Program-made: the position numbers and the translations under genes
Shown: one piece after another, positions 2,317 through 45,761 of the stretch
How positions within the stretch are numbered: position 1 is the stretch's first letter
Layout of the letters: each line of letters starts with the position of its first letter
Origin: an uncultured Gammaproteobacteria bacterium
GTDB lineage: Bacteria; Patescibacteriota; Patescibacteriia; UBA11705; JABHMO01
DNA length: 64,000 bases
NCBI GenBank assembly: GCA_964584985.1
Contig: CAZPBK010000001.1
Location: forward strand, 60,742-124,741
Reading direction: 5' to 3'
The notes under the pieces: generated by a model
Databases searched by the model: none
The model's input: only the letters and a program-made list of their open reading frames with translations
What the model was told of the DNA's origin: nothing

Positions 2317-3204
2317 ATGGCGTTTATGAAAAAATCACAATTTTATAAAAAATTAGAAAATAATTTTGTACAATGTCGCACCTGTTGTCATTATTGTCGG
2401 TTGGCACCAGGGGAAATCGGTCAATGCCAAGTCAGAAAAAATATCAAGGGCGATTTATATAGTTTGGTTTACGGCAAAATAATTGCCCAAGGTGTGGATC
2501 CGATTGAGAAAAAACCCTTATATGAATTTTTGCCGGGCACTTTTACTTATTCTTTGGCCACTCCGGGCTGTAATTTTTCGTGTTTACATTGCCAAAACGC
2601 GGATATTGCCAAGCCGGTTGAAATTGAAAATTTTATCAATGAATTTGCCGCCAAAGAATTTAAACCGCAAGAAATAATTGATCAGGCGTTGCAGTATAAT
2701 TGCCAAAGTATTTCTTATACTTATACCGAACCTACGGTTTTTGCTGATTTTGCTTTGGACATTATGAAACAGGCTAAAAAAGCCAATTTAAAAAATGTTT
2801 GGGTTAGCAATGGTTATTTTTCTAATGAGGTTTTTACCGCTATTAAACCATATTTAGATGCTGTAAATATAGATCTTAAAACTTTTAATGACAAAACTTA
2901 TCAAAAAATCTGTGGTGCTCATCTTGAACCGGTTAAGGAAAATATTAAAAAAGCGGTTAAAGCAAAGGTTCACACCGAAGTGACCACCCTATTGATTCCC
3001 GAAGTAAACGATCGATCCGAAGAAATAAAAAGAATGGCTGAATTTTTATACTCTGTTGATCCGAAAATTGTTTGGCATATTAGCGCTTTTTACCCGGCTT
3101 ATAAAATGATTGATAAACCTCCAACCGATATTAAAACCTTAAAAAAAATCAAAAAAATCGCTAAAAAATGCGGCTTGACCAAAACCTTTTTGGGGAATAT
3201 ATAA
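2317..3204 (+). CDS. amrS: AmmeMemoRadiSam-system radical SAM enzyme (AmrS-like)
   Basis: N-terminal Cys cluster CRTCCHYC...C, then the radical-SAM CxxxCxxC motif in GCNFSCLHCQN. Length ~295 aa. Resembles PflA-like activases of the AmrS family. Confidence 0.65.
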   Translation: MAFMKKSQFYKKLENNFVQCRTCCHYCRLAPGEIGQCQVRKNIKGDLYSLVYGKIIAQGVDPIEKKPLYEFLPGTFTYSLATPGCNFSCLHCQNADIAKPVEIENFINEFAAKEFKPQEIIDQALQYNCQSISYTYTEPTVFADFALDIMKQAKKANLKNVWVSNGYFSNEVFTAIKPYLDAVNIDLKTFNDKTYQKICGAHLEPVKENIKKAVKAKVHTEVTTLLIPEVNDRSEEIKRMAEFLYSVDPKIVWHISAFYPAYKMIDKPPTDIKTLKKIKKIAKKCGLTKTFLGNI

Positions 3205-6005: not shown

Positions 6006-7382
6006 ATGAAAAAAACGGGTTTAAGCCTAATTATTTTTGTGTTATTATTCAATCTTTGGTTGCCAAGTTCAGCTTTGGCTTTAAGTTTTGATAATGCTTA
6101 CATCGTCAGTGATTCGGCCTTAACCGACTATCAAAGTATGAGCCTGGAACAGGTTCGGTCTTTTTTAATGAAAAAAAACAGTGCTTTGGCCGATTACCGG
6201 GTTTCAATTGAACCGGGAAAGGTAAAATCAGCGGCTGAAATCATCTGGGATTCTGCGCAAAAATACCGGGTTAATCCCAAGTTTTTACTGGTTATGTTAC
6301 AAAAAGAGCAGAGTTTGATTGAGGATCCTTCGCCCACTCAAAAACAGCTTGATTGGGCCATGGGATATGGAGTTTGCGATTCTTGTGATCCGGACGATAC
6401 TTCACTGATAATTTTCAAAGGTTTTGCCCGACAAGTAGATCGAGCGGCTTGGCGCCAGCGTTGGTATATTAAAAATAGCGATCTTTCTTGGCTTAGGCAA
6501 AAAGGACAAACCTATAATATTGACGGACATAACATAAAAATAGTAAATCAAGCTACGGCCAATTTATATAATTATACTCCACATATTTACGGTAATTATT
6601 TGTTTTGGAAAATTTGGAATAAATGGTTTGAGCAAAAATATCCTAACGGTTCACTGCTCCAGGCCAAAGGACAAGCCGGAGTATGGCTGATCGAAAACGG
6701 ACAAAAACGGCCTTTTTACAATAAGGGCGCATTATTGTCCAGATATGACATTAACGATATTGTTTTGGTTGAACATCGCGAATTGGATAAATATGAGCCG
6801 GGACCGCCGATCAAGTTTGCTAATTTTTCTTTATTGCAAACAGAATTGGGCGATGTTTATCTTTTGGTTAATGATACTTTACGAAGATTTGAAAGTGATA
6901 AGGTTTGGCGTACTTTGGGCTTTAACCCGGAAGAATTTGAAGAGCTTAACGCTTCTGATTTTAATCATTATAAAACCGGAGCGCTAATAACCTTAAAAGA
7001 AGCCTATCCGGCCGGGGCTCTTTTGCAAAATAATAAAACCGGTGGGGTTTATTTTGTTCAAAACGGTCAAAAAAAACCGATATTAAGTCGAGATATAATA
7101 AAACTTGATTATTCAGCTTACAGTTTAACCCAAGTCAGTCCCGAGGAGTTGGAAAATTTCACAACTAAAGAACCGGCCAGATTAAAAGATGGACACCTGG
7201 TAAAAACCGCTGATTCCCCCATTGTTTATGTGATTTCCGAAGGTAAAAAAAGGCCCATTGCCACAGCCGATGTTTTTGAAAATTTGGGATATCAATGGCA
7301 AAATATCCAAACGGTTGAGACCAAGACTCTTGAAAATATAAAAAAAGGACCATACCTTGATTTGGAATTTAAAAAGCATTAA
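6006..7382 (+). CDS. Secreted protein with signal peptide and C-terminal tandem repeat modules; function unknown
   Basis: N-terminal hydrophobic signal MKKTGLSLIIFVLLFNLWLPSSALA. The C-terminal half contains at least three ~60-70-aa repeats marked by NGQKRPF / NGQKKPI / EGKKRPI. Confidence 0.5.
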   Translation: MKKTGLSLIIFVLLFNLWLPSSALALSFDNAYIVSDSALTDYQSMSLEQVRSFLMKKNSALADYRVSIEPGKVKSAAEIIWDSAQKYRVNPKFLLVMLQKEQSLIEDPSPTQKQLDWAMGYGVCDSCDPDDTSLIIFKGFARQVDRAAWRQRWYIKNSDLSWLRQKGQTYNIDGHNIKIVNQATANLYNYTPHIYGNYLFWKIWNKWFEQKYPNGSLLQAKGQAGVWLIENGQKRPFYNKGALLSRYDINDIVLVEHRELDKYEPGPPIKFANFSLLQTELGDVYLLVNDTLRRFESDKVWRTLGFNPEEFEELNASDFNHYKTGALITLKEAYPAGALLQNNKTGGVYFVQNGQKKPILSRDIIKLDYSAYSLTQVSPEELENFTTKEPARLKDGHLVKTADSPIVYVISEGKKRPIATADVFENLGYQWQNIQTVETKTLENIKKGPYLDLEFKKH

Positions 7383-7416: not shown

Positions 7417-8205
7417 ATGTTGGTATTTTCAGCAATTTGTCCTCATCCGCCCATTTTAATTCCCGGAATCGGCAAAGAAAATCTTTCCAAGATTGAAAAA
7501 ACCAAACAATCCATGGAAATGCTAAAAAAAGGTCTGGATCAAGCCAATCCTGATACAATTATTATAATTTCTCCGCATGGTGAAATAAACAGACACGCTT
7601 TTTCCATAAATACCAATCAAGAATACAGGGCGCGTTTTGAAAATTTTGGTGACTTTAAAACTGAATTGCACTTTAAGTCAGATTTAGAGTTTATAAACAC
7701 GCTAAAAGGATTGGACGAGGTAAACATGCCGATTCATTTGGTTTCAGAAAATAATCTTGATCATGGTTCTTCAGTACCACTTTATTATTTGAATAATCAG
7801 AATGAGAAAGCCAGAATTGTCCCCATCACCTATAGTTTTTTGGGTTATGATAAGCATCTGCAATTTGGAAGATTGATCAAAGAAGCGGCATCGTCATTAA
7901 ATAAAAAATATGCCATTATTGCTTCGGGAGATCTTTCTCACCGATTAACCAAACAAGCTCCGGCCGGTTTTTCACCCAAAGCTAAAGAATTTGATAAAAA
8001 ACTTATTCAGCTCTTAAAGAAAAAAAATACAGAAGGAATTTTGAATCTGGATAAAACCATGATTGAAGAAGCGGCTGAATGTGGTTTGCGTTCAATCCTG
8101 ATTCTGCTGGGAGCCATTGCCAATATGAATTATGAGTTTGAAGTACTGAGTTATGAATCGCCTTTTGGCGTTGGTTATCTGGTTGGTGAATTCAAATTTT
8201 CTTAG
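7417..8205 (+). CDS. amrB: Memo-like protein (AmmeMemoRadiSam system protein B-like, class III extradiol dioxygenase fold)
   Basis: Blockwise similarity to Memo1: ICPHPP vs APHAGY, IIISPHGE vs ILGPSHH, LDHGSSVPLYYL vs EHSIEMHLPY, IIASGDLSHRL vs VVSSDFCHWG, CGLRSILILL vs CGRHPIGVLL. Recalled from memory of Memo1, not aligned. Confidence 0.55.
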   Translation: MLVFSAICPHPPILIPGIGKENLSKIEKTKQSMEMLKKGLDQANPDTIIIISPHGEINRHAFSINTNQEYRARFENFGDFKTELHFKSDLEFINTLKGLDEVNMPIHLVSENNLDHGSSVPLYYLNNQNEKARIVPITYSFLGYDKHLQFGRLIKEAASSLNKKYAIIASGDLSHRLTKQAPAGFSPKAKEFDKKLIQLLKKKNTEGILNLDKTMIEEAAECGLRSILILLGAIANMNYEFEVLSYESPFGVGYLVGEFKFS

Positions 8206-8250: not shown

Positions 8251-8290
8251 GTAATTGTTTTTTTGTGAAAATGTTTTATAATAAAAGCGT

Positions 8291-10198
8291 ATGAATAAAA
8301 TAGCCAAAATCATTCCTTATAAAAAAATGCCCAGAAAGTTTGGTCAGTTTGATTATTTGATACCCGAAGAATTGATTGAAAAGGTTAAACTTGGTTCGTT
8401 GGTAAAGATCCCTTTTAAAAAGCAAACCATTACCGGGCTGGTAACCGGATTTAGTCATTACAGTAAATTTAAATATATTAAACCGGTAAAAAATCTTGTT
8501 TTGGAAACAGAAGCTGAAAAATGGCAACTGGAGTTTATTAAATGGTTCAGCCTGTATTATTGTTGTTCAGAGCCAACCGCTTTTAAGTTGATCTTTCCTG
8601 ATTTGCCTAAGATTGTCAGAGAATATAAAGTTAAAAAAATTGATTCTCAAAAAATAAAATTGCCAAACAATGGGTGGGATAAACAAAAAATCGCTGAACA
8701 AATATTTTGCTCAAAAACCGAAAAAAAATATCTTTTAATGCCCCACTCCTTTGAAGAAAAGTGTTCTTTTTATCTAAATTTATGCAAATCATCAATAAAG
8801 GAGAACAAACAGATATTATTTATTTTCCCAAGAATAAATCAAATAAATTACTTTTTAAAGCTTTTGTCTGATGATTTAAAAAACCAAGTTTTAATTGTAA
8901 GTTCAGATATTCAAAATTCCAAAAATGCTCAAATTAATACTTGGAAAAAAATCAAAAAAAATGAAAAAAAAATTATCATAGGAACCAGGTTGGCGGTCTT
9001 CATGCCTTTTTCCACCCTGAAATTAGTGGTTGTTGACCAAGCGCACAGTCAAGATTTAAAACAATGGGATCAAAATCCCAGGTATGATTCCGGAGTTATT
9101 GCTGAAAAACTTTGCCAACTATTAAACTGCGGATTAATAATAAGCTCAATTACCCCGACACTAAAACAAGCCTATAAAGCAAAAACCGAAAAGCATGAAA
9201 TGATTAAAATTCCCAAAGGCTCTTCAATAAAAACCAATCTAATTGACATAAAAAAGCAAAGACAGTCGGAGTTTACTTATTTAAGTTTTGAATTGGAGCA
9301 ATTATTAAAGCAAAAACTTTCTCAAAATAAAAAAAGTCTTTTGATTGTAAACCGACGTGGAGAATACACTTATTTTTTTTGCCGAGATTGTGGCTGGGAA
9401 GCTCTTTGTGATGAATGCGGGTTACCCATGGTGGTGGAAGATAAAAAATTGGCTTGTCATCACTGTTCAAAAACAACCGCTCTCCCCTTGCAATGCCCTC
9501 AATGTCATAACACGAATCTAAAAAAACTGGGTGCCGGATTACAACAAATCAAGGATCTGGTCTCTGAAAAATTTCAACAAAAAGTCGGTGAGTTAACTCC
9601 GGAAACCGCCTTTTCCCCGAAAGAAAAAATTTGCATCAGCACCGGACAAGGATTAAAAACGCAACAGATTGCCGCCTTTGATTTTTTAGGCTTTGTTTAC
9701 ATTGACAGCTTGGTTCACTTGGCTGATTTTAATTCCAATTACAATCTGTATTCTTATTTAAAAAATTTAATAAATGACTTTAATTCCTTTTCAGCTTCAA
9801 AAGATAAGGAAGTACTTTTACAAACGGCTTTTCCGGAGAATGAAGCTATAAAAAATGTTTTTACGGATTATAAAGAATTTTATAAAAATGAAATAAAATT
9901 AAGAAAGGATTTTAATTATCCCCCGTTTTCCAGTTTGGTTAAATTGATTTTTGAACATCATGATAAAAAAATTGCCGAACGTGAAGCAAAATCTCTTTTT
10001 GCCGAGCTGGAAGAAAAAGAGAGCAAAGGGATCAAGTTAATTCCTCCTTATTTATATTATGCTCAAAAGGTTCGAAAAAGATTTCGTTATCAAATTGTTT
10101 TATTTTTCAGCTCCTACAACTATCTGGAAATAAACAGGTTTTTAGAAGTGGTTCCGGACCATTGGGCTATTGACAAAGATCCATTAAATCTGATATAA
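8291..10198 (+). CDS. priA: Primosomal protein N' (PriA)-like protein with degenerate helicase motifs
   Basis: A PriA-type N-terminal 3'-DNA-binding domain is recognisable. An 8-Cys zinc-binding region reads CRDCGWEALCDECG...CHHCSKTTALPLQCPQCHN. The Walker A position reads MPHSFEEK instead of GxGKT. The DEEH box reads DQAHS. No GRAGR arginine-finger motif is present. Confidence 0.65.
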   Translation: MNKIAKIIPYKKMPRKFGQFDYLIPEELIEKVKLGSLVKIPFKKQTITGLVTGFSHYSKFKYIKPVKNLVLETEAEKWQLEFIKWFSLYYCCSEPTAFKLIFPDLPKIVREYKVKKIDSQKIKLPNNGWDKQKIAEQIFCSKTEKKYLLMPHSFEEKCSFYLNLCKSSIKENKQILFIFPRINQINYFLKLLSDDLKNQVLIVSSDIQNSKNAQINTWKKIKKNEKKIIIGTRLAVFMPFSTLKLVVVDQAHSQDLKQWDQNPRYDSGVIAEKLCQLLNCGLIISSITPTLKQAYKAKTEKHEMIKIPKGSSIKTNLIDIKKQRQSEFTYLSFELEQLLKQKLSQNKKSLLIVNRRGEYTYFFCRDCGWEALCDECGLPMVVEDKKLACHHCSKTTALPLQCPQCHNTNLKKLGAGLQQIKDLVSEKFQQKVGELTPETAFSPKEKICISTGQGLKTQQIAAFDFLGFVYIDSLVHLADFNSNYNLYSYLKNLINDFNSFSASKDKEVLLQTAFPENEAIKNVFTDYKEFYKNEIKLRKDFNYPPFSSLVKLIFEHHDKKIAEREAKSLFAELEEKESKGIKLIPPYLYYAQKVRKRFRYQIVLFFSSYNYLEINRFLEVVPDHWAIDKDPLNLI

Positions 10199-10207
10199 TT
10201 TGTTCAT

Positions 10208-10675
10208 ATGATTTTAAGTATAGTTACTCATCCCAATAAAATTTTAAGAGAGATTTCCAAAGAAATTGATCTGAAAAAGCTGGCTGATCCCGCCATGCAA
10301 AAGTTTATTGATGAAATGAAAGAAACCATGGTAAAAAAGGACGGCGTTGGTTTAGCCGGTCCCCAAGTTGGAGTTACCAAGAGATTGATTATAGTTAATA
10401 CCAAGAATGGAACAAAATGCTTTATAAATCCTGAAATAGTAAAAAAATCTTGGAAAAAAGAAGCCGGGGAAGAAGGTTGTTTAAGCGTTCCCGGTGTTTA
10501 TGGTTCGGTAAAACGCTCAGTCAGAGTTGTCATTCATGCTTATGACCGAAACGGAGAAAAGATCAAGTTGGAAACCAAGGGACTTTTAGCCAGAATATTT
10601 CAACATGAGATTGATCATTTGAACGGAGTCTTGTTTATTGACAAAATAAAAAATGGAAAAAACAACAAAAAATAA
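10208..10675 (+). CDS. def: Peptide deformylase
   Basis: All three PDF motifs are present: GVGLAGPQVG, EGCLSVPG and HEIDHLNG. Confidence 0.9.
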   Translation: MILSIVTHPNKILREISKEIDLKKLADPAMQKFIDEMKETMVKKDGVGLAGPQVGVTKRLIIVNTKNGTKCFINPEIVKKSWKKEAGEEGCLSVPGVYGSVKRSVRVVIHAYDRNGEKIKLETKGLLARIFQHEIDHLNGVLFIDKIKNGKNNKK

Positions 10676-11606
10676 AAATACTGAAATTGTTTTTTTTGGT
10701 TCCGATCCATTTTCAGTGCCGGTCTTCAAGAAGCTTATAAAAAAATATAATGTTAAAGCTTTAGTTTGTGAATCGGATAAACCTTCCGGAAGAAACCAAA
10801 AAATCACCGCTCCGCCAACAAAGAAAATTGCGGAAAATAACAATATTCCAATATTTCAACCTCAAAGCGTTAAAAAAGATAATATTTTTTTTGAAAAAAT
10901 AAAAGCTTTGAATTGTGATTTGTTTATTGTGGCCGCTTTTGGTCAAATAATCCCCTTAAATATTTTGAATCTACCGCTCCACGGCAGTCTAAACATACAC
11001 CCATCACTTTTGCCAAAGTATCGTGGCGCTTCACCGATTAGACAAACCTTACTCAACGGAGATAAGAAAACAGGTATAACCATTATTCTAATGGATCAGG
11101 GAATGGATACGGGAGATATTGTGGCTCAAGAAGTCACCACCGTTAAAAAAAATGATAATTATATAACCTTATCCAAGAAACTGGCTGATCAATCAGCTGA
11201 ATTTTGCATTCGGATTATCCCCGGATATTTGAACGGGGAATTTACTTTATTAACGCAAGATGACAATCAAGCAACCTACACAAAAAAGATTAAAAAAAAT
11301 GACGGCTTGATAAATTGGAAACAATCCGCTAAAGATATAAAAAATCAGTTAAAAGCCTTTATTGATTGGCCGGGAACTTACACTAAATTTAAACAAAAAA
11401 AACTTGACTTGATTACAGCCAAGGTTAGCGACTTTGATAAAAATATAAAAACCGGTCAAGTTTTTAAATGCAAGAACAATATTTTTGTTCAATGCGGTCA
11501 AGGCAGTTTAAAACTGGAAACGGTTAAATTGGAAGGTAAAAAAGTAACAGATATTAAAAATTTTATAAATGGGCATCAGGATTTTATTGGTTCCGTGTTA
11601 GGCTGA
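10653..11606 (+). CDS. fmt: Methionyl-tRNA formyltransferase
   Basis: Formyltransferase core NIHPSLLPKYRGASPI. The N-terminal domain fits (VFFGSDPFSVPV). Overlaps the end of def as is usual for this pair. Confidence 0.9.
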   Translation: MEKTTKNKNTEIVFFGSDPFSVPVFKKLIKKYNVKALVCESDKPSGRNQKITAPPTKKIAENNNIPIFQPQSVKKDNIFFEKIKALNCDLFIVAAFGQIIPLNILNLPLHGSLNIHPSLLPKYRGASPIRQTLLNGDKKTGITIILMDQGMDTGDIVAQEVTTVKKNDNYITLSKKLADQSAEFCIRIIPGYLNGEFTLLTQDDNQATYTKKIKKNDGLINWKQSAKDIKNQLKAFIDWPGTYTKFKQKKLDLITAKVSDFDKNIKTGQVFKCKNNIFVQCGQGSLKLETVKLEGKKVTDIKNFINGHQDFIGSVLG

Positions 11607-13099
11607 ACATCAAGTAAAATTATAATTAAGATCAATAAATAACCAATCCCCAAGGGATGATTTAAATACGGAGTAAAACCGTTAACCAAAAGCAAACTTA
11701 AAAGTCCCAGCAAACTGCCGATCAACAAAGTCTTTTCCAAGGACTGTTTTTTTTTGGCCGAATCATAGATTTTTCTAATTATTTGCCAAATAAAAACCAG
11801 ATAAACCAACAAACCGAACAAACCGATTTTTAACAAAATATCCAAATATCCCCATTCAAAAGCATAAGTGGTATACCAACCTTGAGGATTGTCTTTGGTT
11901 AAAATTCTTGGATCTTGACTTTTATAAGTAATAGATCTTCCCCATCCCGAACCGACTATTGGGTGTTTACTAATGGCTCGCCCCAATTCCGGTAATTGAC
12001 TCCAGCGACTGGAAACCGCTTCGTCGGAAACAGAAAACCGGTCTTTAATCATGGAACCTTTTTCCGTAGAACTTTGATAAAAAGGCAAAGGTATATTGAT
12101 TATTGCGGACACAAGACCGTAAGACACCACTCCGATCAACAGTAAGGTCATAAATAAAAGCGCTGTTTGGCGCAAATTTTTTCTATAATAAAAAATCAAA
12201 GTTAAGAAATAAACAATAATTCCTCCGATCAAACCGACCCAAAAACTTCTAGACAAACTGGTTAAAATAGTAGAGCCCAACAAAATAATCATAATCAGCA
12301 AACAAATATTTTGTTTGCTTTTTAAATTAAATTTATTTTTAAGACTAAAATATGTCCAAAAAATAAAAAAACCGATCAAAGCAAATATTTGAGCCTGAGA
12401 AAAAATACGAAAAAAACCGGAATTAAGCAGAGTAAATTCGCCCCAAAGGGTATCACGCCCCCAAGTGTAAAGAAAACCCATAATTGGAAATTTATGGGCA
12501 AAAATAAATAAAAATATCATTGTTTTAAGGCTTATAGCAACAAGTCCGGCTGAAAAAATCGGCCAAAAATCAGAAAAAAACTTATTATTGGTGTAAACCG
12601 AAACAAAGGGAAAAATATATAAAAAATAAAGCCAGGCGTTAAAATCCAAAAATATGTTTTTTAAACCATTATTTTGCCAAAAGGCTTGAATTATTCCCCA
12701 AGTTAAAACTATGGCCAAAATGGTAAGGTGTTTTATTTGAAAAACTTGTTTAATTTCTTTAATAAGAGTTTTTTGCCAAACTGATTTTATTAGCCAAGCC
12801 AGCATTATTGCGGAAAAAATGCCGATTCTGATAGAAACTTGAAAATCGGCAATATCAATGGAAAACAAATGACCTTGAGAGCCGATTATTAATTCAACCA
12901 AAGCGGTGTATATTCCCCATTTAAGTTTATATAAGCTTAAACCAAAAACCAAAACAAAAATAATTAAATAAAAAAACAAGCTTAAATCAAAGGCTATTTT
13001 GGTCCAGATAACAAAAAATGAGGCTAATTCCGCCAAAAGAATAAACCATAAAGTATGTTTGAATTTTGTGCCGAAAAAATTAAGTTGTCTTGGCTTCAT
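11576..13099 (-). CDS. Polytopic membrane protein, O-antigen-ligase/Wzy-like (tentative)
   Basis: 507 aa with ≥10 predicted TM helices. It sits next to glycosyltransferase genes. The family assignment is inference from topology only. Confidence 0.35.
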   Translation of the reverse strand: MKPRQLNFFGTKFKHTLWFILLAELASFFVIWTKIAFDLSLFFYLIIFVLVFGLSLYKLKWGIYTALVELIIGSQGHLFSIDIADFQVSIRIGIFSAIMLAWLIKSVWQKTLIKEIKQVFQIKHLTILAIVLTWGIIQAFWQNNGLKNIFLDFNAWLYFLYIFPFVSVYTNNKFFSDFWPIFSAGLVAISLKTMIFLFIFAHKFPIMGFLYTWGRDTLWGEFTLLNSGFFRIFSQAQIFALIGFFIFWTYFSLKNKFNLKSKQNICLLIMIILLGSTILTSLSRSFWVGLIGGIIVYFLTLIFYYRKNLRQTALLFMTLLLIGVVSYGLVSAIINIPLPFYQSSTEKGSMIKDRFSVSDEAVSSRWSQLPELGRAISKHPIVGSGWGRSITYKSQDPRILTKDNPQGWYTTYAFEWGYLDILLKIGLFGLLVYLVFIWQIIRKIYDSAKKKQSLEKTLLIGSLLGLLSLLLVNGFTPYLNHPLGIGYLLILIIILLDVQPNTEPIKS

Positions 13100-15709: not shown

Positions 15710-16645
15710 TTATTTTAGATAAATCTTGCTTTTTAGAAAAAAGTCGCGGTCACTAAAATCTTCTTCCGAATCCTTGTTTTCCTGAATTATACGATCAGCG
15801 GTGCTAACTTTGGCTGAGGTATTATCAATATGAGCCAGAGCCAAAGATTCTCTGCTCATTGGCAAAACCGGACTGCCAAATTCTTGTCGTCCATGATGAG
15901 AAAGAAGCATGTTTAACAATTTGGCTCTAAGCTCGCGGGGAAAATTTTGCTCCATTTTTTTATCAACCCATATGGCGCCAAGTGAAATATGCCCAATCAA
16001 ATTGCCTTCCAAGGTGCGATAAATGCAAGTATCAAATCCCAGTTCTTGCATTTTTCCCACATCATGCAAAAGAACCCCGGTTATCAAAAGATCCTTATCC
16101 AACTCCGGATAAGATTCAAATAAACTATGCGCCAGATTAAGCATTTCCACCACATGTTCCATTAAACCGCCAAGATAAGCATGATGAATCTTTTCCGCGC
16201 CCGGTGCTTTTTTAAATTTTTCCACAAAATCTTTATCTCCAAAAAAAGAATTTAAAAGTCTTTTTAAATCAGGATGTTTTATTTGCTCCACATTGGCTTG
16301 TACGGTTTGCCATAAATCATCAATGTTTTTTTCACTGGCCGGTAAAAAAGACTGAAGATCAAAATCTCGAGATTGCTCCAAAAAACTTATATCCAATTGA
16401 GGTTTCCCACGAAATTCCTTAACCTCGGCTGAAAGACTAACGACTTGACCTTTTTCCGGTTCTTGACAATTACTCATATTATCTTCCCATATTTTACCGG
16501 TTATTTCTCCGGTTTTGTCACTTAAAATAAGATCAAAATAATCCTTGCCCTGAACGGTTTTACCACATTTAACCCCTTTAATCGCAAATTCTTGGCCGGT
16601 TATTTTTTCATTTATGGCCAATTCGTTGATGAATTTGTTTTTCAT
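15710..16645 (-). CDS. yhaM: YhaM-like 3'-5' exoribonuclease (OB-fold plus HD phosphohydrolase domain)
   Basis: N-terminal OB-fold region (GQEFAIKGVKCGKTVQGKDYFDLILSDKTGEI). HD domain motifs HHAYLGGLMEHV and LLHDVGK. Confidence 0.65.
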   Translation of the reverse strand: MKNKFINELAINEKITGQEFAIKGVKCGKTVQGKDYFDLILSDKTGEITGKIWEDNMSNCQEPEKGQVVSLSAEVKEFRGKPQLDISFLEQSRDFDLQSFLPASEKNIDDLWQTVQANVEQIKHPDLKRLLNSFFGDKDFVEKFKKAPGAEKIHHAYLGGLMEHVVEMLNLAHSLFESYPELDKDLLITGVLLHDVGKMQELGFDTCIYRTLEGNLIGHISLGAIWVDKKMEQNFPRELRAKLLNMLLSHHGRQEFGSPVLPMSRESLALAHIDNTSAKVSTADRIIQENKDSEEDFSDRDFFLKSKIYLK

Positions 16646-17196
16646 AATTTTTGTTCTGAAAATTTAATGGTTTTATAAGTAAAAAATTCCGTACTTTTAT
16701 TTTTAAAGCAATTAAATTCCAAACCGGCTTTTTGACATAAAGAAGCAAAAAATTGTTTTTTGTTCTCAAAACTTTTCCAAACTTCCGGCAAGTAAGTGGC
16801 TTGATTTTGCTTGTTTTTAATAATCACTCCTTCTCCCGGCTTAATTTGGTCATATTTAACTTTTTTTGGTTCGGTTAAAACGGAAATTTCAATGGTAATG
16901 TTATTTAATTCTTCAGGCTTTACCGGAGGAAAACGATAATCTTTTATGGCCGCGGACTGCGTATTTTCAGCCACTGCCCGCCAAAGCGATAAAATCGGTT
17001 CAATCTGTCCAATACAGCCTCTGACTCGGTTGTTTTTCATTAAAGTGATAAAAACCCCGCTTTTTTGCTTAAAATTTTCATCAGGGCAATCGGGAAGAGC
17101 AAATCCCCGGCTTTCAACGGCCGCTTTTAAAGCTTTTTCAGCCAAAGCTGAAAGTTGTTTTTTTTGCTGATCGTTTAATTGCATATTCTTATTCAA
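16642..17196 (-). CDS. amrA: AMMECR1-domain protein (AmmeMemoRadiSam system protein A-like)
   Basis: 184 aa with the characteristic RGCIG motif (NNRVRGCIGQIEP) and the overall AMMECR1 length and pattern. Confidence 0.75.
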   Translation of the reverse strand: MNKNMQLNDQQKKQLSALAEKALKAAVESRGFALPDCPDENFKQKSGVFITLMKNNRVRGCIGQIEPILSLWRAVAENTQSAAIKDYRFPPVKPEELNNITIEISVLTEPKKVKYDQIKPGEGVIIKNKQNQATYLPEVWKSFENKKQFFASLCQKAGLEFNCFKNKSTEFFTYKTIKFSEQKL

Positions 17197-26192: not shown

Positions 26193-27518
26193 TTACTTTT
26201 GTGTTTTTATTTTTTTTATAACCTCTAAAGCCTTTTTTTCTAAAATAAGACTTCCGTTTATGTGCGTTTTTATTTTATTTTTCTCGTTTGGATCATTTTT
26301 CAAATCATAGATAAAAAAATCTTTTACTTCACCTTTGGTTGTTATCTTGGCAATGTATTTTTCATACTCATTCCTAACACTGATTAAAAAAATATTTTTA
26401 TCCTCAATTGACAGGCTAATTATATCACGGTTTTTTTCTTCAACAGAATCTTCTGTTAATAAATCCACCAAACTTTTTCCATCATATTCATTGGCTCCAC
26501 TTCCATTAATCAAATGATCCAAGGTCGGGCATATATCCACCGTACTTACATTTTCAGAGACAATTTTTCTAGAAATTCCGGGACCAACCCAGATAAAAGG
26601 GATTTTTATCAATTCTTCATACAAGTCACTTGTATGTTCAACTTTGCCGTGCTCCAAAAAAGCTTCGCCATGATCCGCCGTAAAGATAAAATGTGTATTG
26701 TTTTTATTTATTCCTTTTTTTTCTAAATCGTGTATAAATTTTTTTATTATATTATTTGATAAATATAAATATTGATTTATGTATAATTTTTTCAATACAC
26801 CTATCTGCTTATTTGAAAAATTTTCCAGAGGCTTAAAGAAAAATAATGAACGGAGAAAAAACCACTTTAGTCTATTGGTAAACTTATTGTGAGAGCTATA
26901 TGGTCCGTGGACATCCATAAAATGCATCCATAAGAAAAAAGGATCCCCTTGTTCTCTTTTTTCTATTACATTTAAGGCGGTTTTTGTCAGTTTATCAGAG
27001 TTTGTATGGCTTAAGTCCAAAAAATAAAAACTAATTAATTTTAAAACCCCCCTTAGAAATTTTAGTTTTTTGGATCGCCTTAATAATCTGATTAATTTCC
27101 CTCTAAACATTTTTTTCTTTGATCTTGTTTGAAAATCATGATAATAACAAAAACCCCTTTCATAGCCAAGACCCTTTATCAGAAAAGGATTAAAATCATT
27201 TAAACCAACTGTGTGGTATCCCTTGTCTTTTAATTTTTCTGCTATTGTTTTTCTTTGATTTGATAATTTAACCGGATGCCAGCTGGTTCCCGGCAAAGGA
27301 TCCCTTATCTCGTTTTCATAAACGCCTGGATATTGACCACTCATGATACTTGGCAAGGAATAGGGTGTTATCGGAGCATTGGAAAATGAGTTTATAAATA
27401 AAGTCCCTTGTTTTGAAAACTCACTTATAAAATCATTATTATTTCTTTCATTATATGCCTTTAAGATATCTGATCGTAAGGCATCAACGGTAATTAAAAT
27501 TATATTTGGTTTTTCCAT
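26193..27518 (-). CDS. Alkaline-phosphatase-superfamily (sulfatase-like) protein lacking the formylglycine Cys/Ser
   Basis: N-terminal metal-binding block ILITVDALRSD. The sulfatase-signature region reads ITPYSLPSIMSGQYP, with Ile at the Cys/Ser (FGly) position and no Arg. Distal motif TADHGEAF. Confidence 0.6.
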   Translation of the reverse strand: MEKPNIILITVDALRSDILKAYNERNNNDFISEFSKQGTLFINSFSNAPITPYSLPSIMSGQYPGVYENEIRDPLPGTSWHPVKLSNQRKTIAEKLKDKGYHTVGLNDFNPFLIKGLGYERGFCYYHDFQTRSKKKMFRGKLIRLLRRSKKLKFLRGVLKLISFYFLDLSHTNSDKLTKTALNVIEKREQGDPFFLWMHFMDVHGPYSSHNKFTNRLKWFFLRSLFFFKPLENFSNKQIGVLKKLYINQYLYLSNNIIKKFIHDLEKKGINKNNTHFIFTADHGEAFLEHGKVEHTSDLYEELIKIPFIWVGPGISRKIVSENVSTVDICPTLDHLINGSGANEYDGKSLVDLLTEDSVEEKNRDIISLSIEDKNIFLISVRNEYEKYIAKITTKGEVKDFFIYDLKNDPNEKNKIKTHINGSLILEKKALEVIKKIKTQK

Positions 27519-35334: not shown

Positions 35335-36287
35335 AGATTTTTTGATCTTTCTTTAATTATATACATTGGTCGATTTATTACTTCTCTTTGGATGTTCCCT
35401 ATATATAAGGCTATTAAACCGAGACAACTCAAAACTATACCAATAAAAAATATTATTAAAACAGCTAGTTGAGCCGGTCCGGAAAAGTTAAAAGACCACG
35501 CAGGATAGAGATATTGTGTTACCAGCATGAATAAACCAATCGTCCCGGAAATTAAAATTATAAAAATACCTAAATACCCCGCTAACTTAAGTGGCAATAA
35601 GCTATTAGAAACAAATGAAGACAAGGCCAGTTTAGCTAGCTTTAAATAGCTATAACCTGGTTGTCCGCTTTTTCTTGGTCGAGCTTGAAAATTAACATAA
35701 GCCTTATTAAAACCAATCCAATTCAGTAATCCTCGAGTAATTCTTTGCTTTTCAGTTAACTTGTTGAATTCTTTAATAATTTTTTTGTCTATTAAACGAA
35801 AATCAGTTGAGTGGGGTTTTATTTTTGTCTCACTGATTAAATTTATAAGTTTATAATAAAATATTGCTCCCAATTTCCTTATTAAGCTTTCTCCAACATT
35901 AGCATCTCGAACTCCAATAACCATATCATTTCCTTGTTCCCATTTATCGATGAATTTATTTATTGTTTCCGGCGGATGTTGAAGATCCGCATCTATAATA
36001 ACGGCCGCTTGTCCGTTGACATGATGCAATCCCGCACTAGTGGCGATTTCTTTACCAAAATTTCTAGAAAAAGAAATATAATTAACATTTACATCTTTCT
36101 TTGCCAATTCTTTTATAGTGGTTAAACTCGTATCCGTACTTCCGTCGTCAACAAAAATGAACTCAAAGTTTTTATTCAATTCTTTTAATTCGTTGTATAA
36201 TTCTCTTATTGTTTCCTGTTCATTATAGACAGGAATAACTATTGAAATTCTAAACATTTTTTTTATTTCTATATAAATTTGGATCAA
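35331..36287 (-). CDS. GT2 polyprenyl-phosphate glycosyltransferase (DPM1/GtrB/ArnC-like) with two C-terminal TM helices
   Basis: [23 protein letters not shown] and DADLQHPP motifs, plus a C-terminal membrane anchor. Confidence 0.75.
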
Positions 36288-36828
36288 TTACCTCCTTCAT
36301 TTTGTTGGAGTTAAGAAAAACATCAAGAAAGCTGATAATTTTATTGATATTTTCATCGGCATTAACAAAAAAATCATTGTATGAAACGCTTAAGACATCA
36401 AAATTATCTTTTTTGTTCAACCAAGCCTTAACTTCTTCTAAATGCTTTTCATACAAGGTTTTTATTTCCTTATCAGAAATGCTACTTTCTTTTTTTCTAT
36501 GAGCCAACATCTTATTTTGAGATCTTATTATTTCCTCCAAATCTCTTTCCATGAATATAACTTTATATCTGTAATTTTTGGGTAAATCATAAAGTAACAT
36601 TGAAATTATTTTCACAACCCTTCCCTTGGCTCGCTTCAACCATAATGAATCCTTTTTTGTTTTTTTTACTTTTTCAAACTCATAATACCCTTTTGGATTG
36701 TCTTTATCAGGTTTTCTAATATTGTCAACCAAAGATTTCAAACCTCCAGCTTCCAACATGTTCATCATCAAAGAGGTTCCGGACCTAGGTAGGCCGGAAA
36801 CTATAATTATCGGATTTTCATTTGACAT
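36250..36828 (-). CDS. PAPS-dependent sulfotransferase (Sulfotransfer_3-like)
   Basis: 5'-PSB motif IIIVSGLPRSGTSLMMNML. 192 aa, a small cytosolic sulfotransferase size. Context includes PAPS synthesis genes. Confidence 0.65.
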   Translation of the reverse strand: MSNENPIIIVSGLPRSGTSLMMNMLEAGGLKSLVDNIRKPDKDNPKGYYEFEKVKKTKKDSLWLKRAKGRVVKIISMLLYDLPKNYRYKVIFMERDLEEIIRSQNKMLAHRKKESSISDKEIKTLYEKHLEEVKAWLNKKDNFDVLSVSYNDFFVNADENINKIISFLDVFLNSNKMKEVIDPNLYRNKKNV

Positions 36829-38106: not shown

Positions 38107-38895
38107 CTAAATCTTAGCTAATTCTTTAATAACATTATAATGGATTTTCCCATTACTAACAACAAAACCGTTATAATTCATGGGATCTCTTTTATTGTAA
38201 ACAATGTTATCACCAAACATATCCGTAAAAACACCACCCGCCTCTTTAACAATAATATCAGAGGCGCAAACATCCCATTCACCGGTTTTATCACTGGTAT
38301 TTAGATATAAATCACCGAATTGGTCGGCTATTTTAGCGGATTTAAGTCCGGCACTACCGCAAGTTTGCATTTTATCTATACTTAACTTTTTAGCCAGATT
38401 CATTTCCCTATCCAAAAGATGATTGCGACTACGCAATAAAATGATTTCCGAATAATCTTTTTTATCGGAAACTTGTAATTTAACGGTTTGACCGCGATGC
38501 TCCATATAAGCTCCTTGGCCGGCTGACGCCCAAAAAAGTTTATCCTCGGCCGGCTGATAAACCGCCCCCAAAACCGGACGACCATTTTGACTTAAACCGA
38601 TCATAATGGAAAATTCGCCGGTCTGCTGAATAAAATCCTTGGTTCCGTCCAAAGGATCAATTATCCAAACCTTTTCCTGATACAACCGCTTATTTTCTTT
38701 ATCGGTTTCCTCGGACAAAATACCGTAATTCAATTGTTTTAGTTTTTGCAAAATAACCTTTTCCGAAGCTAAATCAGCTTGAGTAACCGGACTGTCCCCG
38801 CCTTTATCCCGGATATTTAAATCTTGACCGTAAAATTCCATAACTTTTTTTCCGGCTTGTTTTATGGTACTCTTCAATATACTTAATTCCGACAT
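38107..38895 (-). CDS. cysQ: 3'(2'),5'-bisphosphate nucleotidase CysQ-type (inositol monophosphatase family)
   Basis: IMPase-family motifs EETDKE, WIIDPLDGTKDF and WDVCASDIIVKEAGG. Chosen as CysQ rather than SuhB from the PAPS-gene context. Confidence 0.65.
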   Translation of the reverse strand: MSELSILKSTIKQAGKKVMEFYGQDLNIRDKGGDSPVTQADLASEKVILQKLKQLNYGILSEETDKENKRLYQEKVWIIDPLDGTKDFIQQTGEFSIMIGLSQNGRPVLGAVYQPAEDKLFWASAGQGAYMEHRGQTVKLQVSDKKDYSEIILLRSRNHLLDREMNLAKKLSIDKMQTCGSAGLKSAKIADQFGDLYLNTSDKTGEWDVCASDIIVKEAGGVFTDMFGDNIVYNKRDPMNYNGFVVSNGKIHYNVIKELAKI

Positions 38896-39457: not shown

Positions 39458-41269
39458 TTATTTTTGTAAAAACTTATTTTTATACAAATAATCAATAATC
39501 TGCTCCACACATTCATCAACTGTATTTTCATGAGTTTGACAACAAATATGAGGATTGTCCGGTGCTTCATATGGAGCGGAAATACCGGTAAAATTATCAA
39601 TTTCACCATTAAGAGCTTTTTTATACAAACCTTTGACATCCCGTTTAATACAAATATCCAAAGGGGCGTCAACAAAAACCTCCAAAAATTTATCAGTATG
39701 AAAAGAGGCTGTTTTCCTATGCTCTTTATAAGGTGAAATAAAAGTGGCCAAAACCAAAACATCGTGTTTGCTAAGCAAGCCGGCCACATAAGAAACTCGT
39801 TCAATATTTTTATCGCGATCCTCTTTGGAAAATCCCAAATCTCTGGTTAAAGCCTGTCGCACAATGTCACCGTCCAATCGCTCGCAACGAACCCCCATGT
39901 TTTTCAAAACCACATATAATTTATCAGCAATAGTACTTTTGCCCGATCCGGAAAGTCCGGTAAACCACATCACACCTCCTTTATTGTCTTTTACCCGGTG
40001 AATATAACCACCGGTTTCAGCATTTTTTACTTTTTTATTTATTATACCCGCACCCACGGTATTTTTACTTATTGGATCAATAATAATAAAATTTCCGGTA
40101 TGACGATTTTTTTGGTATGGATCAAAAGACAATGAATCCTGTGTGCGAATGTAAACTCGCCCCATTTCATTTAAATAAAGTTTTGATTTTTCCTCACGAT
40201 GCAAATCATCCATGTTTATTCTGTATCTTAATCTTTCCACAAAACCATTGCTCGTTCTGCTGGTGTGCTTGATAATATAATTTTTATTTTCTGCCAAAGG
40301 CTCATCGCTCATCCAACAAACAGTGGCCTCAAAATTATCTGAAACCTCAGACATATTTTGTTCTTTAACTATCATATCTCCTCGACTAATATCCAGTTCG
40401 TCCTCCAAAGAAAGCAAAGCGGACAAAGGATTAAAAGCATAATCTTGTCTGGAACCGTTAACATAAATCTCCTTTATTGAAGATTTATTATTGGCCGGTA
40501 AGATTCTGACTCGATCACCGCGCCGAATAATTCCACCCTCAATTTTTCCGGTATAACCACGGAAATCTTGATTCGGACGGACAACACTCTGCACCGGGAA
40601 ACGAAAATCAATCAAATTTCTATCAGCGGTTATTTGAATATTTTCCAAATAATCCAAAATTGTTCGTCCGTTATACCAAGGCATATTATGACCACGATCC
40701 ACCACCATATCTCCTTTAAGCGCGGAAACCGGTGTAAATTGTAAATCTTTTATATTTAGTTTGGAACAAAAATCAGAAAAATCTTGTTTAATTTTATTAA
40801 AAATCTTTTGATCATAATCCACTAAATCCATTTTATTGACTACAACCAAAACATGCGGAATACCCAAAAGAGCGGCTATGAATAAATGTCTTTTAGATTG
40901 AATAAGTAAGCCTTTTCTGGCATCACACAAAATCAAAGCCAAATTTGAGTTAGAAGCCCCGGTCATCATGTTTCTGGTATATTGTTCATGCCCCGGTACA
41001 TCGGCAATAATAAAACGCCGTTTGGGAGTGGAAAAATAACGATAAGCCACATCAATGGTTATCCCTTGTTCCCTTTCCGCTTTTAAGCCGTCCAAAAGAA
41101 AAGCCAAATCAACTTCCTTGCCCACTTTATCACAAGTTTTTTTTACTGATAAATACTGATCCTCAAAAATAGAATGACAATCATGAAGCATTCTTCCAAT
41201 CAGGGTTGATTTTCCGTCATCCACGCTCCCGGCGGTGCTTATTCTCAAAAGTTCAATATCATTTTGCAT
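39458..41269 (-). CDS. cysNC: Bifunctional sulfate adenylyltransferase subunit 1 / adenylylsulfate kinase (CysN-CysC fusion)
   Basis: N-terminal GTPase motif STAGSVDDGKSTLIGRL and DVPGHEQY. C-terminal APS kinase P-loop FTGLSGSGKSTIA and LDGD. 603 aa. Confidence 0.9.
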   Translation of the reverse strand: MQNDIELLRISTAGSVDDGKSTLIGRMLHDCHSIFEDQYLSVKKTCDKVGKEVDLAFLLDGLKAEREQGITIDVAYRYFSTPKRRFIIADVPGHEQYTRNMMTGASNSNLALILCDARKGLLIQSKRHLFIAALLGIPHVLVVVNKMDLVDYDQKIFNKIKQDFSDFCSKLNIKDLQFTPVSALKGDMVVDRGHNMPWYNGRTILDYLENIQITADRNLIDFRFPVQSVVRPNQDFRGYTGKIEGGIIRRGDRVRILPANNKSSIKEIYVNGSRQDYAFNPLSALLSLEDELDISRGDMIVKEQNMSEVSDNFEATVCWMSDEPLAENKNYIIKHTSRTSNGFVERLRYRINMDDLHREEKSKLYLNEMGRVYIRTQDSLSFDPYQKNRHTGNFIIIDPISKNTVGAGIINKKVKNAETGGYIHRVKDNKGGVMWFTGLSGSGKSTIADKLYVVLKNMGVRCERLDGDIVRQALTRDLGFSKEDRDKNIERVSYVAGLLSKHDVLVLATFISPYKEHRKTASFHTDKFLEVFVDAPLDICIKRDVKGLYKKALNGEIDNFTGISAPYEAPDNPHICCQTHENTVDECVEQIIDYLYKNKFLQK

Positions 41270-41284
41270 ATTTAAAAATCATTT

Positions 41285-42187
41285 TTAAAAATAACCGGAT
41301 TGTTTTTTATCCTCCATGGAACTATCACCACTATGATCAATTATTCTATTTTCCCTCTCGGATTTTTTAGCCAATAAAACTTCTTTTAAAATATCTTCCA
41401 CCGTGGAGGCCGAAGATTCAACCGCTCCGGTACAAGGCACACAGCCAAGGGATCTGAATCGGCACATTACTTCTCCCACTTTTTCATCTTTCTTTACCCT
41501 AGTGGATTCTTCCACCGGCACCAAAAGTCCATTTCTTCTAACCACCTTTCTTTTTTTGGCAAAATAAAGTGGTACTATTTCAATATTTTCTTCTTTAATA
41601 TAATTCCAAACATCCGACTCGGTCCAATTGGAAAGAGGAAAAACACGCATGGTTTCTTGTTTATTTAAATGCGAATTAAAATTATGCCAAAGTTCGGGGC
41701 GCTGATTTTTAGGATCCCACTTGCCCATCGAATTACGATGGGAATAAACTCGCTCTTTGGCTCTGGATTTTTCTTCATCTCGCCGAGCACCGCCTATGGC
41801 CGCATCAAATCCATGCTTTTTTATAGAGTCAAGCAAAGCTTGAGTTTTTAAATAACTACAACAAGTATCTACGCCGTGAATAGCCGGATGCAGACCTTGT
41901 TTGAATTTTTCATGCTGTTCCACAATTAATTTTACGCCTACCTTTTTAGTATAATAATCTCTAAAGTCAGTCATTTGTTTTGGTTTGTAGCCGGTATCAA
42001 TATGCATTAAAGGAAAAGGCACTTTTCCCGGATAAAAAGCTTTGCGCGCCAAATGCAATAGACAAGAAGAATCCTTGCCAACGGAATACAGCATTACCGG
42101 ATTTTTAAACTCCGCCGCCACTTCCCTAATTATGTAAATCGCCTCAGACTCTAACTCCTTTATATGCGACAATTTATAATTTTCCAT
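41285..42187 (-). CDS. cysD: Sulfate adenylyltransferase subunit 2
   Basis: PAPS-reductase-fold N-terminus [29 protein letters not shown]. 300 aa. Directly adjacent to cysNC. Confidence 0.9.
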
Positions 42188-45311: not shown

Positions 45312-45761
45312 CTAATCTCCAACCTTGAAAAAGAGCCAATTTTTCTCTTGATCTTTTAAATTTATTAAAACAAATTTTCCGTTTAATCTATCGCCTTTTA
45401 TTTTAAAAACAATTTTGTTTTTTTTAATATCCTCAGGTTCCCAAAAGCCTTTATCCCAAATTTTCACCCGGCCGGCGCCATAATGACCTTTGGGTATTTC
45501 TCCTTCAAACCCCGCATAATCAAGCGGATGATCTTCGGTCCTGATGGCCAATCTTTTTATACCGGAATCGGAGGGCTTTTTGGGTACAGCCCAGCTCCAA
45601 AGCACGCCTTCATGTTCCAATCTCAGATCATAATGCAAATTTTGGGCATGATGTTTTTGCACTACATAGGTTAAGTTTTTATCCTTTTTTTGGCCAACCT
45701 CGGCCTTTGGCTCGTGTGACTTTTCCAAATCTCTTTTTTGTTTGTATTTTTCCAAACCCAT
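45312..45761 (-). CDS. Stand-alone LigD-type 3'-phosphoesterase (PE) domain protein
   Basis: LTYVVQKHHAQNLHYDLRLE...SWAVPKKPS...KRLAIRTEDHPLDYAGFEGEIPKG.YGAG.V.IWDKGFW matches the LigD PE domain pattern. 149 aa. Confidence 0.7.
   Translation of the reverse strand: MGLEKYKQKRDLEKSHEPKAEVGQKKDKNLTYVVQKHHAQNLHYDLRLEHEGVLWSWAVPKKPSDSGIKRLAIRTEDHPLDYAGFEGEIPKGHYGAGRVKIWDKGFWEPEDIKKNKIVFKIKGDRLNGKFVLINLKDQEKNWLFFKVGD

Follow-up and report, generated by a model that had tools for sequence, protein, structure and literature searches.

A degenerate PriA without its ATP-site motifs in Patescibacteria: a probable helicase-independent adaptor for replication restart

Can a PriA protein that has lost its ATP site still serve in replication restart? 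The question is raised by the priA gene found at positions 8291..10198 (+) of a 64,000-nucleotide stretch of DNA (hereafter the window) from contig CAZPBK010000001.1 of assembly GCA_964584985.1, a genome that GTDB places in the Patescibacteriota (Patescibacteria, or Candidate Phyla Radiation, CPR). A first reading of this locus made from the letters of the DNA (the sequence-only reading) had proposed a PriA that keeps its fork-recognition and zinc-binding modules and can neither hydrolyse ATP nor unwind DNA, and a protein predicted to have these properties fits all the computational tests that we ran. As described below, residues expected to touch ATP are replaced, the gene is under purifying selection and the degenerate form is the common one among the related genomes compared. 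The window PriA is probably a 'pseudohelicase', an adaptor that recognises forks and serves to reload the replicative helicase without any helicase activity of its own.

The priA open reading frame (ORF) is uninterrupted and encodes 635 residues plus a stop codon. It is a true PriA orthologue, given that its product exceeds the cut-off of the NCBIfam equivalog model TIGR00595 'replication restart helicase PriA' (262.9 bits, with a cut-off of 230.35), has an E. coli PriA-like fold and is encoded in the classical order priA-def-fmt. In phmmer searches against solved PriA structures, the Klebsiella pneumoniae and E. coli proteins were the best sequence relatives (E ~1e-43). The AlphaFold2 model (predicted local distance difference test, pLDDT, 91.5; predicted template modelling score, pTM, 0.90) best matched fork-bound E. 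coli PriA in Foldseek (8fak_H, TM 0.83, E 1e-45), followed by 6dcr, an engineered E. coli PriA with the winged-helix domain deleted, and, further down the list, by other superfamily 2 (SF2) helicases (Mfd, RecG, UvrB), and the two RecA-like lobes of the SF2 helicase core are present as folds. Among Pfam models, PriA_3primeBD (PF17764) matched residues 18-103 (E 2.3e-14) and PriA_C (PF18074) matched residues 545-612 (E 4.3e-08, over the cut-off), and the generic helicase models stayed below threshold (DEAD, 15.4 bits with a cut-off of 26; Helicase_C, 12.3 bits with a cut-off of 23.5). The NCBIfam PRK14873 models ('primosome assembly protein PriA', actinobacterial) gave weak matches of 25-69 bits, with cut-offs above 800, and judging from these scores the window PriA is not part of that subfamily. 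Its closest homologues come from metagenome-assembled genomes (MAGs) of Kuenenbacteria, Falkowbacteria and the 'Parcubacteria group', and its homologues are of equal length (600-660 residues); the G+C content of the window is ~34%. From its homologues, too, the source is a member of the ultra-small Patescibacteria.

To locate the helicase motifs, E. coli K-12 PriA (RefSeq) was aligned with the window PriA and 57 database homologues by MAFFT L-INS-i, and a further MAFFT alignment of 105 sequences (76 degenerate CPR, 10 intact CPR and 19 non-CPR PriAs) provided the per-column counts given throughout. The register was identical in these two alignments and in the HMMER pairwise alignment, with motifs I and II free of gaps, and it bore out the replacements that the sequence-only reading had listed for Walker A and the DEEH box, as well as the absence of an arginine-finger motif. 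At the place of Walker A (motif I, 8735..8767, +) the window PriA has LMPHSFEEKCS instead of LAGVTGSGKTE (E. coli 222-LAGVTGSGKTEV aligned with window 149-LMPHSFEEKCSF), so that GVTGSGKT becomes MPHSFEEK, in which the Lys is kept and the Thr and all P-loop glycines are lost. At motif II (9029..9049, +) VVDQAHS replaces VIDEEHD (VIDEEHDSSYK in E. coli, VVDQAHSQDLK in the window); DEEH thus becomes DQAH, keeping Asp and His and losing both glutamates. Motif V (9635..9658, +) is degraded, with ISTGQGLK replacing LIGTQMLAKG (aligned window residues CISTGQGLKT), and at motif VI (9758..9799, +) LKNLINDFNSFSAS stands in place of LYTQVAGRAGRAGK, with TQVAGRAGRA aligned to KNLINDFNSF and GRAGR to NDFNS, by which the Gln and both arginines are lost. 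The same residues have gone from the 76 degenerate CPR sequences as a group: no Gly is among the residues listed for the P-loop positions G224, G227 and G229, nor is Thr among those listed for T231, the motif II positions E321 and E322 are variable, and Q580, G583, R584 and R587 of motif VI are lost or deleted, most relatives having a deletion there. ATPase activity has presumably been lost from the window PriA as well.

That intact motifs are concealed by misalignment, by a frameshift or by an assembly error is vanishingly improbable. The three independent alignments agree in register and recover no intact Walker A or B, the pattern GxxxxGK[ST] occurs nowhere in the priA ORF, and a six-frame phmmer search of the 64 kb window with E. 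coli, Firmicute and window PriA as queries found a single PriA-like segment and no second priA. The ORF is continuous, with homologues of equal length, and an identical protein is encoded on a metagenome contig in ENA; no frameshift is hiding the motifs.

The loss is selective. The claim that all ATPase/helicase motifs had disappeared is correct for motif I, the motif II glutamates, motif VI and most of motif V, but not for motifs Ia and Ib, the aromatic-rich loop, part of motif III and motif IV. In motif Ia (FIFPRINQ, 8819..8842, +) the conserved Pro (P180, E. coli P253) is kept, as it is in 74 of the 76 degenerate sequences, and motif Ib (IIGTRLA, 8975..8995, +) keeps G231-T232-R233 (G in 73, T in 69 and R in 62 of the 76). 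The aromatic-rich loop, or motif IIa (LKQWDQNPRYD, 9056..9088, +; K257...P263-R264-Y265), is the most conserved stretch of the degenerate clade, with its Lys, Pro and Arg each present in 76/76. Motif III is partly kept (ISSITP, against LGSATP in E. coli, retaining S285, T288 and P289; the Pro is found in 74/76), and motif IV (IVNRRG, 9344..9361, +) retains N354-R355-R356-G357 (N in 62/76, G in 72/76). Even in motif V the Thr is retained by 69 of the 76 degenerate CPR sequences.

The domains flanking or inserted into the core have likewise been conserved, as the sequence-only reading had stated for the N-terminal 3' DNA-binding domain and the eight-cysteine region. The former (residues 1-103, 8291..8599, +; PF17764) carries the pocket motif F20-D21-Y22 at 8348-8356, plus K63. 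In E. coli the pocket for the 3' end is formed by D17, Y18, G37 and K61 (PMC5778457). D21, Y22 and K63 of the window PriA correspond to Asp17, Tyr18 and Lys61, and the equivalents of Y18 and K61 are present in 75/76 and 66/76 degenerate CPR sequences, respectively; the G37 position is occupied by Lys in the window PriA and by Arg in most CPR sequences. The cysteine-rich region (9380..9505, +), which aligns with that of E. coli, contains four CxxC pairs (C364/367, C373/376, C389/392 and C402/405) whose eight cysteines are all invariant in 37 aligned homologues and would be expected to bind two zinc ions. The C-terminal domain (residues 541-635, 9911..10195, +; PF18074) has an invariant Y543-P544-P545. 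From the alignments, then, a split is apparent in which the residues predicted to touch ATP are replaced or deleted and the motif residues predicted to contact nucleic acid remain. All invariant or near-invariant positions of the degenerate clade are ancestral PriA residues and no new clade-specific invariant site is seen, which indicates that a sub-function was lost rather than that a new site was visibly gained.

A further loss had been overlooked in the sequence-only reading. At the place of the winged-helix domain of E. coli PriA, the window PriA has a linker (residues 104-130, 8600..8680, +) modelled with a pLDDT of 60-69, followed in the AlphaFold2 model by one helix only (131-140), where E. 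coli has ~75 winged-helix residues. The segment between the 3' DNA-binding domain and the helicase core measures 44 residues in the window PriA, 119 in E. coli and 178 (median) in non-CPR proteins; the winged-helix domain is missing. It is also missing from the intact CPR PriAs, which indicates that its loss preceded that of the ATP site.

With catalytic motifs and one domain lost, the gene could be suspected of being a functionless, decaying remnant. We regard this as extremely improbable, given that the full-length ORF is intact and its predicted fold confident, and that the ORFs are intact and of equal length in 70 species genomes. Ratios of nonsynonymous to synonymous substitution rates (dN/dS), computed on priA pairs with unsaturated synonymous divergence, were 0.14 for the degenerate pair L011/L012 (0.10 within the former motor core), 0.13 for the degenerate pair L059/L065 and 0.20 for the degenerate pair L041/L053, all for the full ORF unless stated, and 0.06 for the intact pair L018/L024. 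Within the former motor core the ratios stay at the same level. Values of ~0.1-0.2 mean that the degenerate priA is under purifying selection. Considered alongside the invariant cysteines and the uniform length, they exclude that the gene is a pseudogene.

To determine how widespread this form of PriA is, a profile of the degenerate PriA was searched against 1.84 billion cluster representatives, which yielded 34,689 relatives; the best 150, each full-length and scoring above 520 bits, were examined, and of the 134 that were new, ~110 are without Walker A and motif VI, which ~20 have kept. In a separate scan of one genome per GTDB species with the CPR-type pattern of the aromatic-rich loop, 270 genomes were found, and the locus counts given here refer to the best 80 of them. 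These are 80 different assemblies, nearly all labelled as Patescibacteria or its candidate phyla (Falkow-, Kuenen-, Moran-, Magasanik-, Kerfeld- and Torokbacteria, Paceibacterota), with 70 encoding a degenerate and 10 an intact PriA; each has one PriA, with no second priA within ~10 kb of the first. The degenerate PriA had been called unusual, and this holds in comparison with characterised bacteria; within the phylum, in contrast, the dead form is the majority, both in these species genomes and among the cluster representatives.

Intermediate stages of decay were also found. One group of the Paceibacterota/Moranbacteria type has DEEH or DDEH and GTQM and lacks the P-loop and motif VI. In a neighbour-joining tree built with the motif columns masked (100 bootstraps), the CPR PriAs are monophyletic (99/100) and the intact group formed by L016, L018, L024, L026 and L038 is basal among them (95/100), and a second intact group (L042, L060, L062, L072 and L081) falls within a small clade that holds degenerate members and lies outside the clade of the window PriA (100/100). 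The topology required by a single loss of the ATP site for the whole phylum was recovered in 0/100 bootstrap trees, which indicates at least two independent losses within Patescibacteria, although this is a distance tree, so that the exact number of losses needs a likelihood analysis.

Some individual sequences of the family deserve mention on their own account. The PriA of L016 (Torokbacteria) is otherwise intact and has Glu in place of the first Walker A Gly, and the Moranbacteria-type proteins of L042, L060, L062, L072 and L081 combine GP(S/A)GSGKT with DEEQ and GRxxR. A degenerate PriA of 897 residues, P0032, has an HD domain (PF01966) among its listed Pfam domains and a ~20-residue insertion inside the cysteine-rich region. 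Several GTDB-representative MAGs titled 'uncultured Gammaproteobacteria', 'Pirellulales' or 'Bdellovibrionales' (L002, L009, L015, L019, L025, L031, L042 and others) carry a Patescibacteria-type PriA in the same gene order, and the taxonomy in these titles seems mistaken or a placeholder.

A PriA of the pseudohelicase kind is already known. The literature treats the helicase motifs of PriA as a feature that bacteria in general have conserved, Deinococcus-Thermus being the exception (Lopper et al. 2015, PMC4504706; PMC5778457, a review of 2018). D. radiodurans PriA has no ATPase or helicase activity, yet it binds single-stranded DNA, forks and DnaB, and in the Deinococcus-Thermus PriAs motifs I and II agree badly with the consensus, the Lys of GKT being replaced by Arg (PMC4504706). 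Being an orthologue with non-consensus Walker A and B motifs, the Deinococcus protein may serve as a functional model for the window PriA. Judged against its published description, however, the window PriA has gone further, in that motif VI in its entirety, the P-loop glycines and both glutamates of motif II have been erased; moreover, the CPR proteins lack the winged-helix domain and are ~100 residues shorter than E. coli PriA, and their losses are recurrent and extend over most of a large radiation. Because the degenerate CPR proteins are nested in a CPR clade with intact basal members, their origin looks independent of that in Deinococcus, in a tree that was built without Deinococcus sequences. 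The CPR proteins are a second, much larger natural set of PriAs without an ATP site.

A second parallel is offered by the K230R substitution of E. coli PriA (priA300), which abolishes ATPase, helicase and translocase activity; in vivo the mutant nevertheless comes close to the wild type, and the PriA-PriB pathway still operates with it (PMC5778457). Such Walker A mutants, ATPase-dead as is predicted for the window PriA, still assemble primosomes, which means that PriA can be a pure adaptor. They differ in being laboratory point mutants with all domains present, in needing PriB and DnaT, and in failing in the PriA-PriC pathway, which requires the helicase. PriB and DnaT are not known to occur beyond some Proteobacteria. 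The construct in 6dcr has the same domain make-up as the window PriA (3' DNA-binding domain, two lobes, cysteine-rich region and C-terminal domain) and differs in being engineered and in having an intact ATP site. Canonical PriAs (E. coli, K. pneumoniae, Bacillus; TIGR00595, 4nl4, 8fak) belong to the family of the window PriA and have its fold, with the 3'-end pocket, aromatic-rich loop, cysteine-rich region and C-terminal domain in common; they differ in possessing both a winged-helix domain and the ATP-site motifs, which the window PriA lacks. Actinobacterial PriA may be a further lineage without recognisable helicase motifs, a caution of this kind reportedly being attached to mycobacterial PriA in UniProt; in the literature on the mycobacterial protein (Rv1402) we found no statement about its motifs. 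Nothing relevant linking PriA to CPR or Patescibacteria was found in the collection searched, which is incomplete, so that an earlier mention is possible.

These features suggest how a PriA without a motor could work. Abandoned forks or D-loops would be recognised by the pocket for the 3' end together with the surviving motifs for DNA contact (Ia, Ib, aromatic-rich loop, IV), the 3' DNA-binding domain capping the end of the nascent leading strand. The dead lobes and the aromatic-rich loop might grip the template DNA, so that the lagging-strand template is held, and the surfaces of the cysteine-rich region and the C-terminal domain could act as a platform recruiting the replicative helicase DnaB, either directly or through SSB or a loader. 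R697 was set aside as a candidate for the SSB-site residue of PriA, since position 697 of the aligned E. coli protein is Ser and no such residue is named in the review (PMC5778457). The window PriA itself would not unwind DNA, and unwinding would be needless or carried out by another enzyme. It may be speculated that acidic residues in the former P-loop (FEEK in the window PriA; Glu at the G229 position in 28/76 degenerate sequences) occupy the phosphate site and thereby lock the lobes.

Several observations weigh against the pseudohelicase interpretation. First, the Walker A Lys (K230 position) is kept as Lys or Arg in 55/76 degenerate sequences and the motif II Asp (D320 position) in 54/76, so that nucleotide binding may, with a low probability, persist in part. 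Second, the winged-helix domain helps E. coli PriA to bind forks without a 3' end, and with this domain missing the substrate range of the window PriA may differ. Third, the window is part of a genome, the rest of which may encode either an intact priA alongside this one or some other helicase for restart. Finally, Pfam and NCBIfam searches of the ~50 ORFs of the window detected no DnaB, DnaC/DnaI, DnaD, DciA, SSB or PriB, and with no replication genes in the window the gene context gives no hint on the partners of PriA.

The retained Lys and Asp also lend themselves to the reading that the protein is still an ATPase or helicase using a non-canonical site, made up of Lys156 and Asp249 or corresponding to the second, weaker nucleotide site proposed for PriA, which is mentioned in a review without a location (PMC5778457). 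We consider this very unlikely, since the P-loop glycines and Thr have all been replaced and two glutamates directly precede the Lys (FEEK), since motif II has lost both its glutamates and motif VI its Gln and its two arginines, with a deletion in most relatives, and since the single K230R change suffices to abolish the activity of E. coli PriA.

It is also conceivable, if rather unlikely, that the protein no longer reloads a helicase and that its conserved DNA-binding parts serve a new role in fork or D-loop protection, as a recombination accessory, or in the initiation of replication in a reduced genome. The loss of both the ATP site and the winged-helix domain would suit such a change, as would the tight linkage of priA to genes of the AmmeMemoRadiSam system in 50/80 loci, and purifying selection proves only that PriA does something. 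On the other hand, the conserved residues of the clade are all ancestral, with no novel clade-specific invariant site among them, the order priA-def-fmt is unchanged, and the helicase-dead E. coli and Deinococcus PriAs retain a part in restart or the features that fit them for it.

Beyond this locus, a helicase-independent PriA may be the normal state in most of a major bacterial radiation, the ATP site having been dropped at least twice after the loss of the winged helix and a selected, minimal 'adaptor PriA' having been left; to this broader proposal we give about an even chance. Such an adaptor may consist of the 3'-end pocket, the dead RecA lobes used as a DNA clamp, the zinc region and the C-terminal domain. 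If this is true, fork recognition and helicase recruitment are the essential and universal job of PriA, and unwinding is an accessory that symbionts with small genomes can drop. With many lineages, repeated losses, intermediate states and intact sister groups as controls, the CPR proteins amount to a natural experiment on the parts of PriA that restart cannot do without, and the degenerate forms suggest a minimal protein for structural and biochemical work. The window PriA is thus a lead from comparative genomics. Automated names such as 'replication restart helicase', or the label 'hypothetical protein' that several of these proteins bear at NCBI, are misleading for such genomes.

Downstream of priA lie def (peptide deformylase, 10208..10675, +; PF01327, E 6.6e-52), 10 nt 3' of it, and fmt (methionyl-tRNA formyltransferase, 10653..11606, +; PF00551 and PF02911), found downstream of priA in 56/80 and 57/80 loci, respectively; the order priA-def-fmt presumably occurs in Bacillus-type genomes as well. 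Directly upstream is a gene for a Memo/LigB-like protein, AmmeMemoRadiSam system protein B (7417..8205, +), a homologue of which is encoded on the same strand no more than 3 kb upstream of priA in 50/80 CPR loci. It is preceded by a gene for a 458-residue protein with an N-terminal signal-like segment (6006-7382, +), which has no match in Pfam or NCBIfam and lies upstream of the Memo-like gene and priA in 42/80 CPR loci. The members of the order [458-residue secreted protein]-[Memo-like]-priA-def-fmt are common to 42-57 of the 80 loci. The other parts of the system are an AmmeMemoRadiSam radical SAM enzyme (2317-3204, +; TIGR04337, 275 bits) and protein A/AMMECR1 (16642-17196, -; TIGR04335, 163 bits), so that all three parts are dispersed around priA in the window; in 23 loci the protein A homologue ends 4 nt into the start of priA on the same strand.

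Two minus-strand ORFs within priA (8276-8527 and 9273-9476) were set aside as short, AT-rich chance ORFs, and an Rfam scan of the window found three tRNAs and nothing else, none of them in or near priA. The cumulative G-C skew reaches its maximum at 10776, and the gene strand changes from plus to minus at 11.6 kb, the site of overlap between fmt and a convergent Wzy_C gene. The pattern at ~10800-12000, just downstream of priA-def-fmt, resembles a terminus and may reflect gene-strand bias alone.

Elsewhere the window encodes ClpB, QueA, a YhaM-like nuclease, HisS, an antiporter and a large cluster for envelope glycans and sulfate activation. A LigD 3'-phosphoesterase domain stands alone in a protein of 149 residues (45312-45761, -; PF13298, 129 bits), with no ligase or polymerase domain nearby. 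The envelope-glycan cluster (~20000-57000, mostly on the minus strand) contains many GT2 and GT4 glycosyltransferases, a Wzx-like flippase and GT-C/PMT-like enzymes, together with a full sulfate-activation set comprising CysD (41285-42187), a CysN/CysC fusion (39458-41269) and a CysQ-like protein (38107-38895), as well as a sulfotransferase (36250-36828) and a sulfatase-fold protein (26193-27518). These glycan and sulfate genes suggest that sulfated surface glycans are made by a CPR bacterium.

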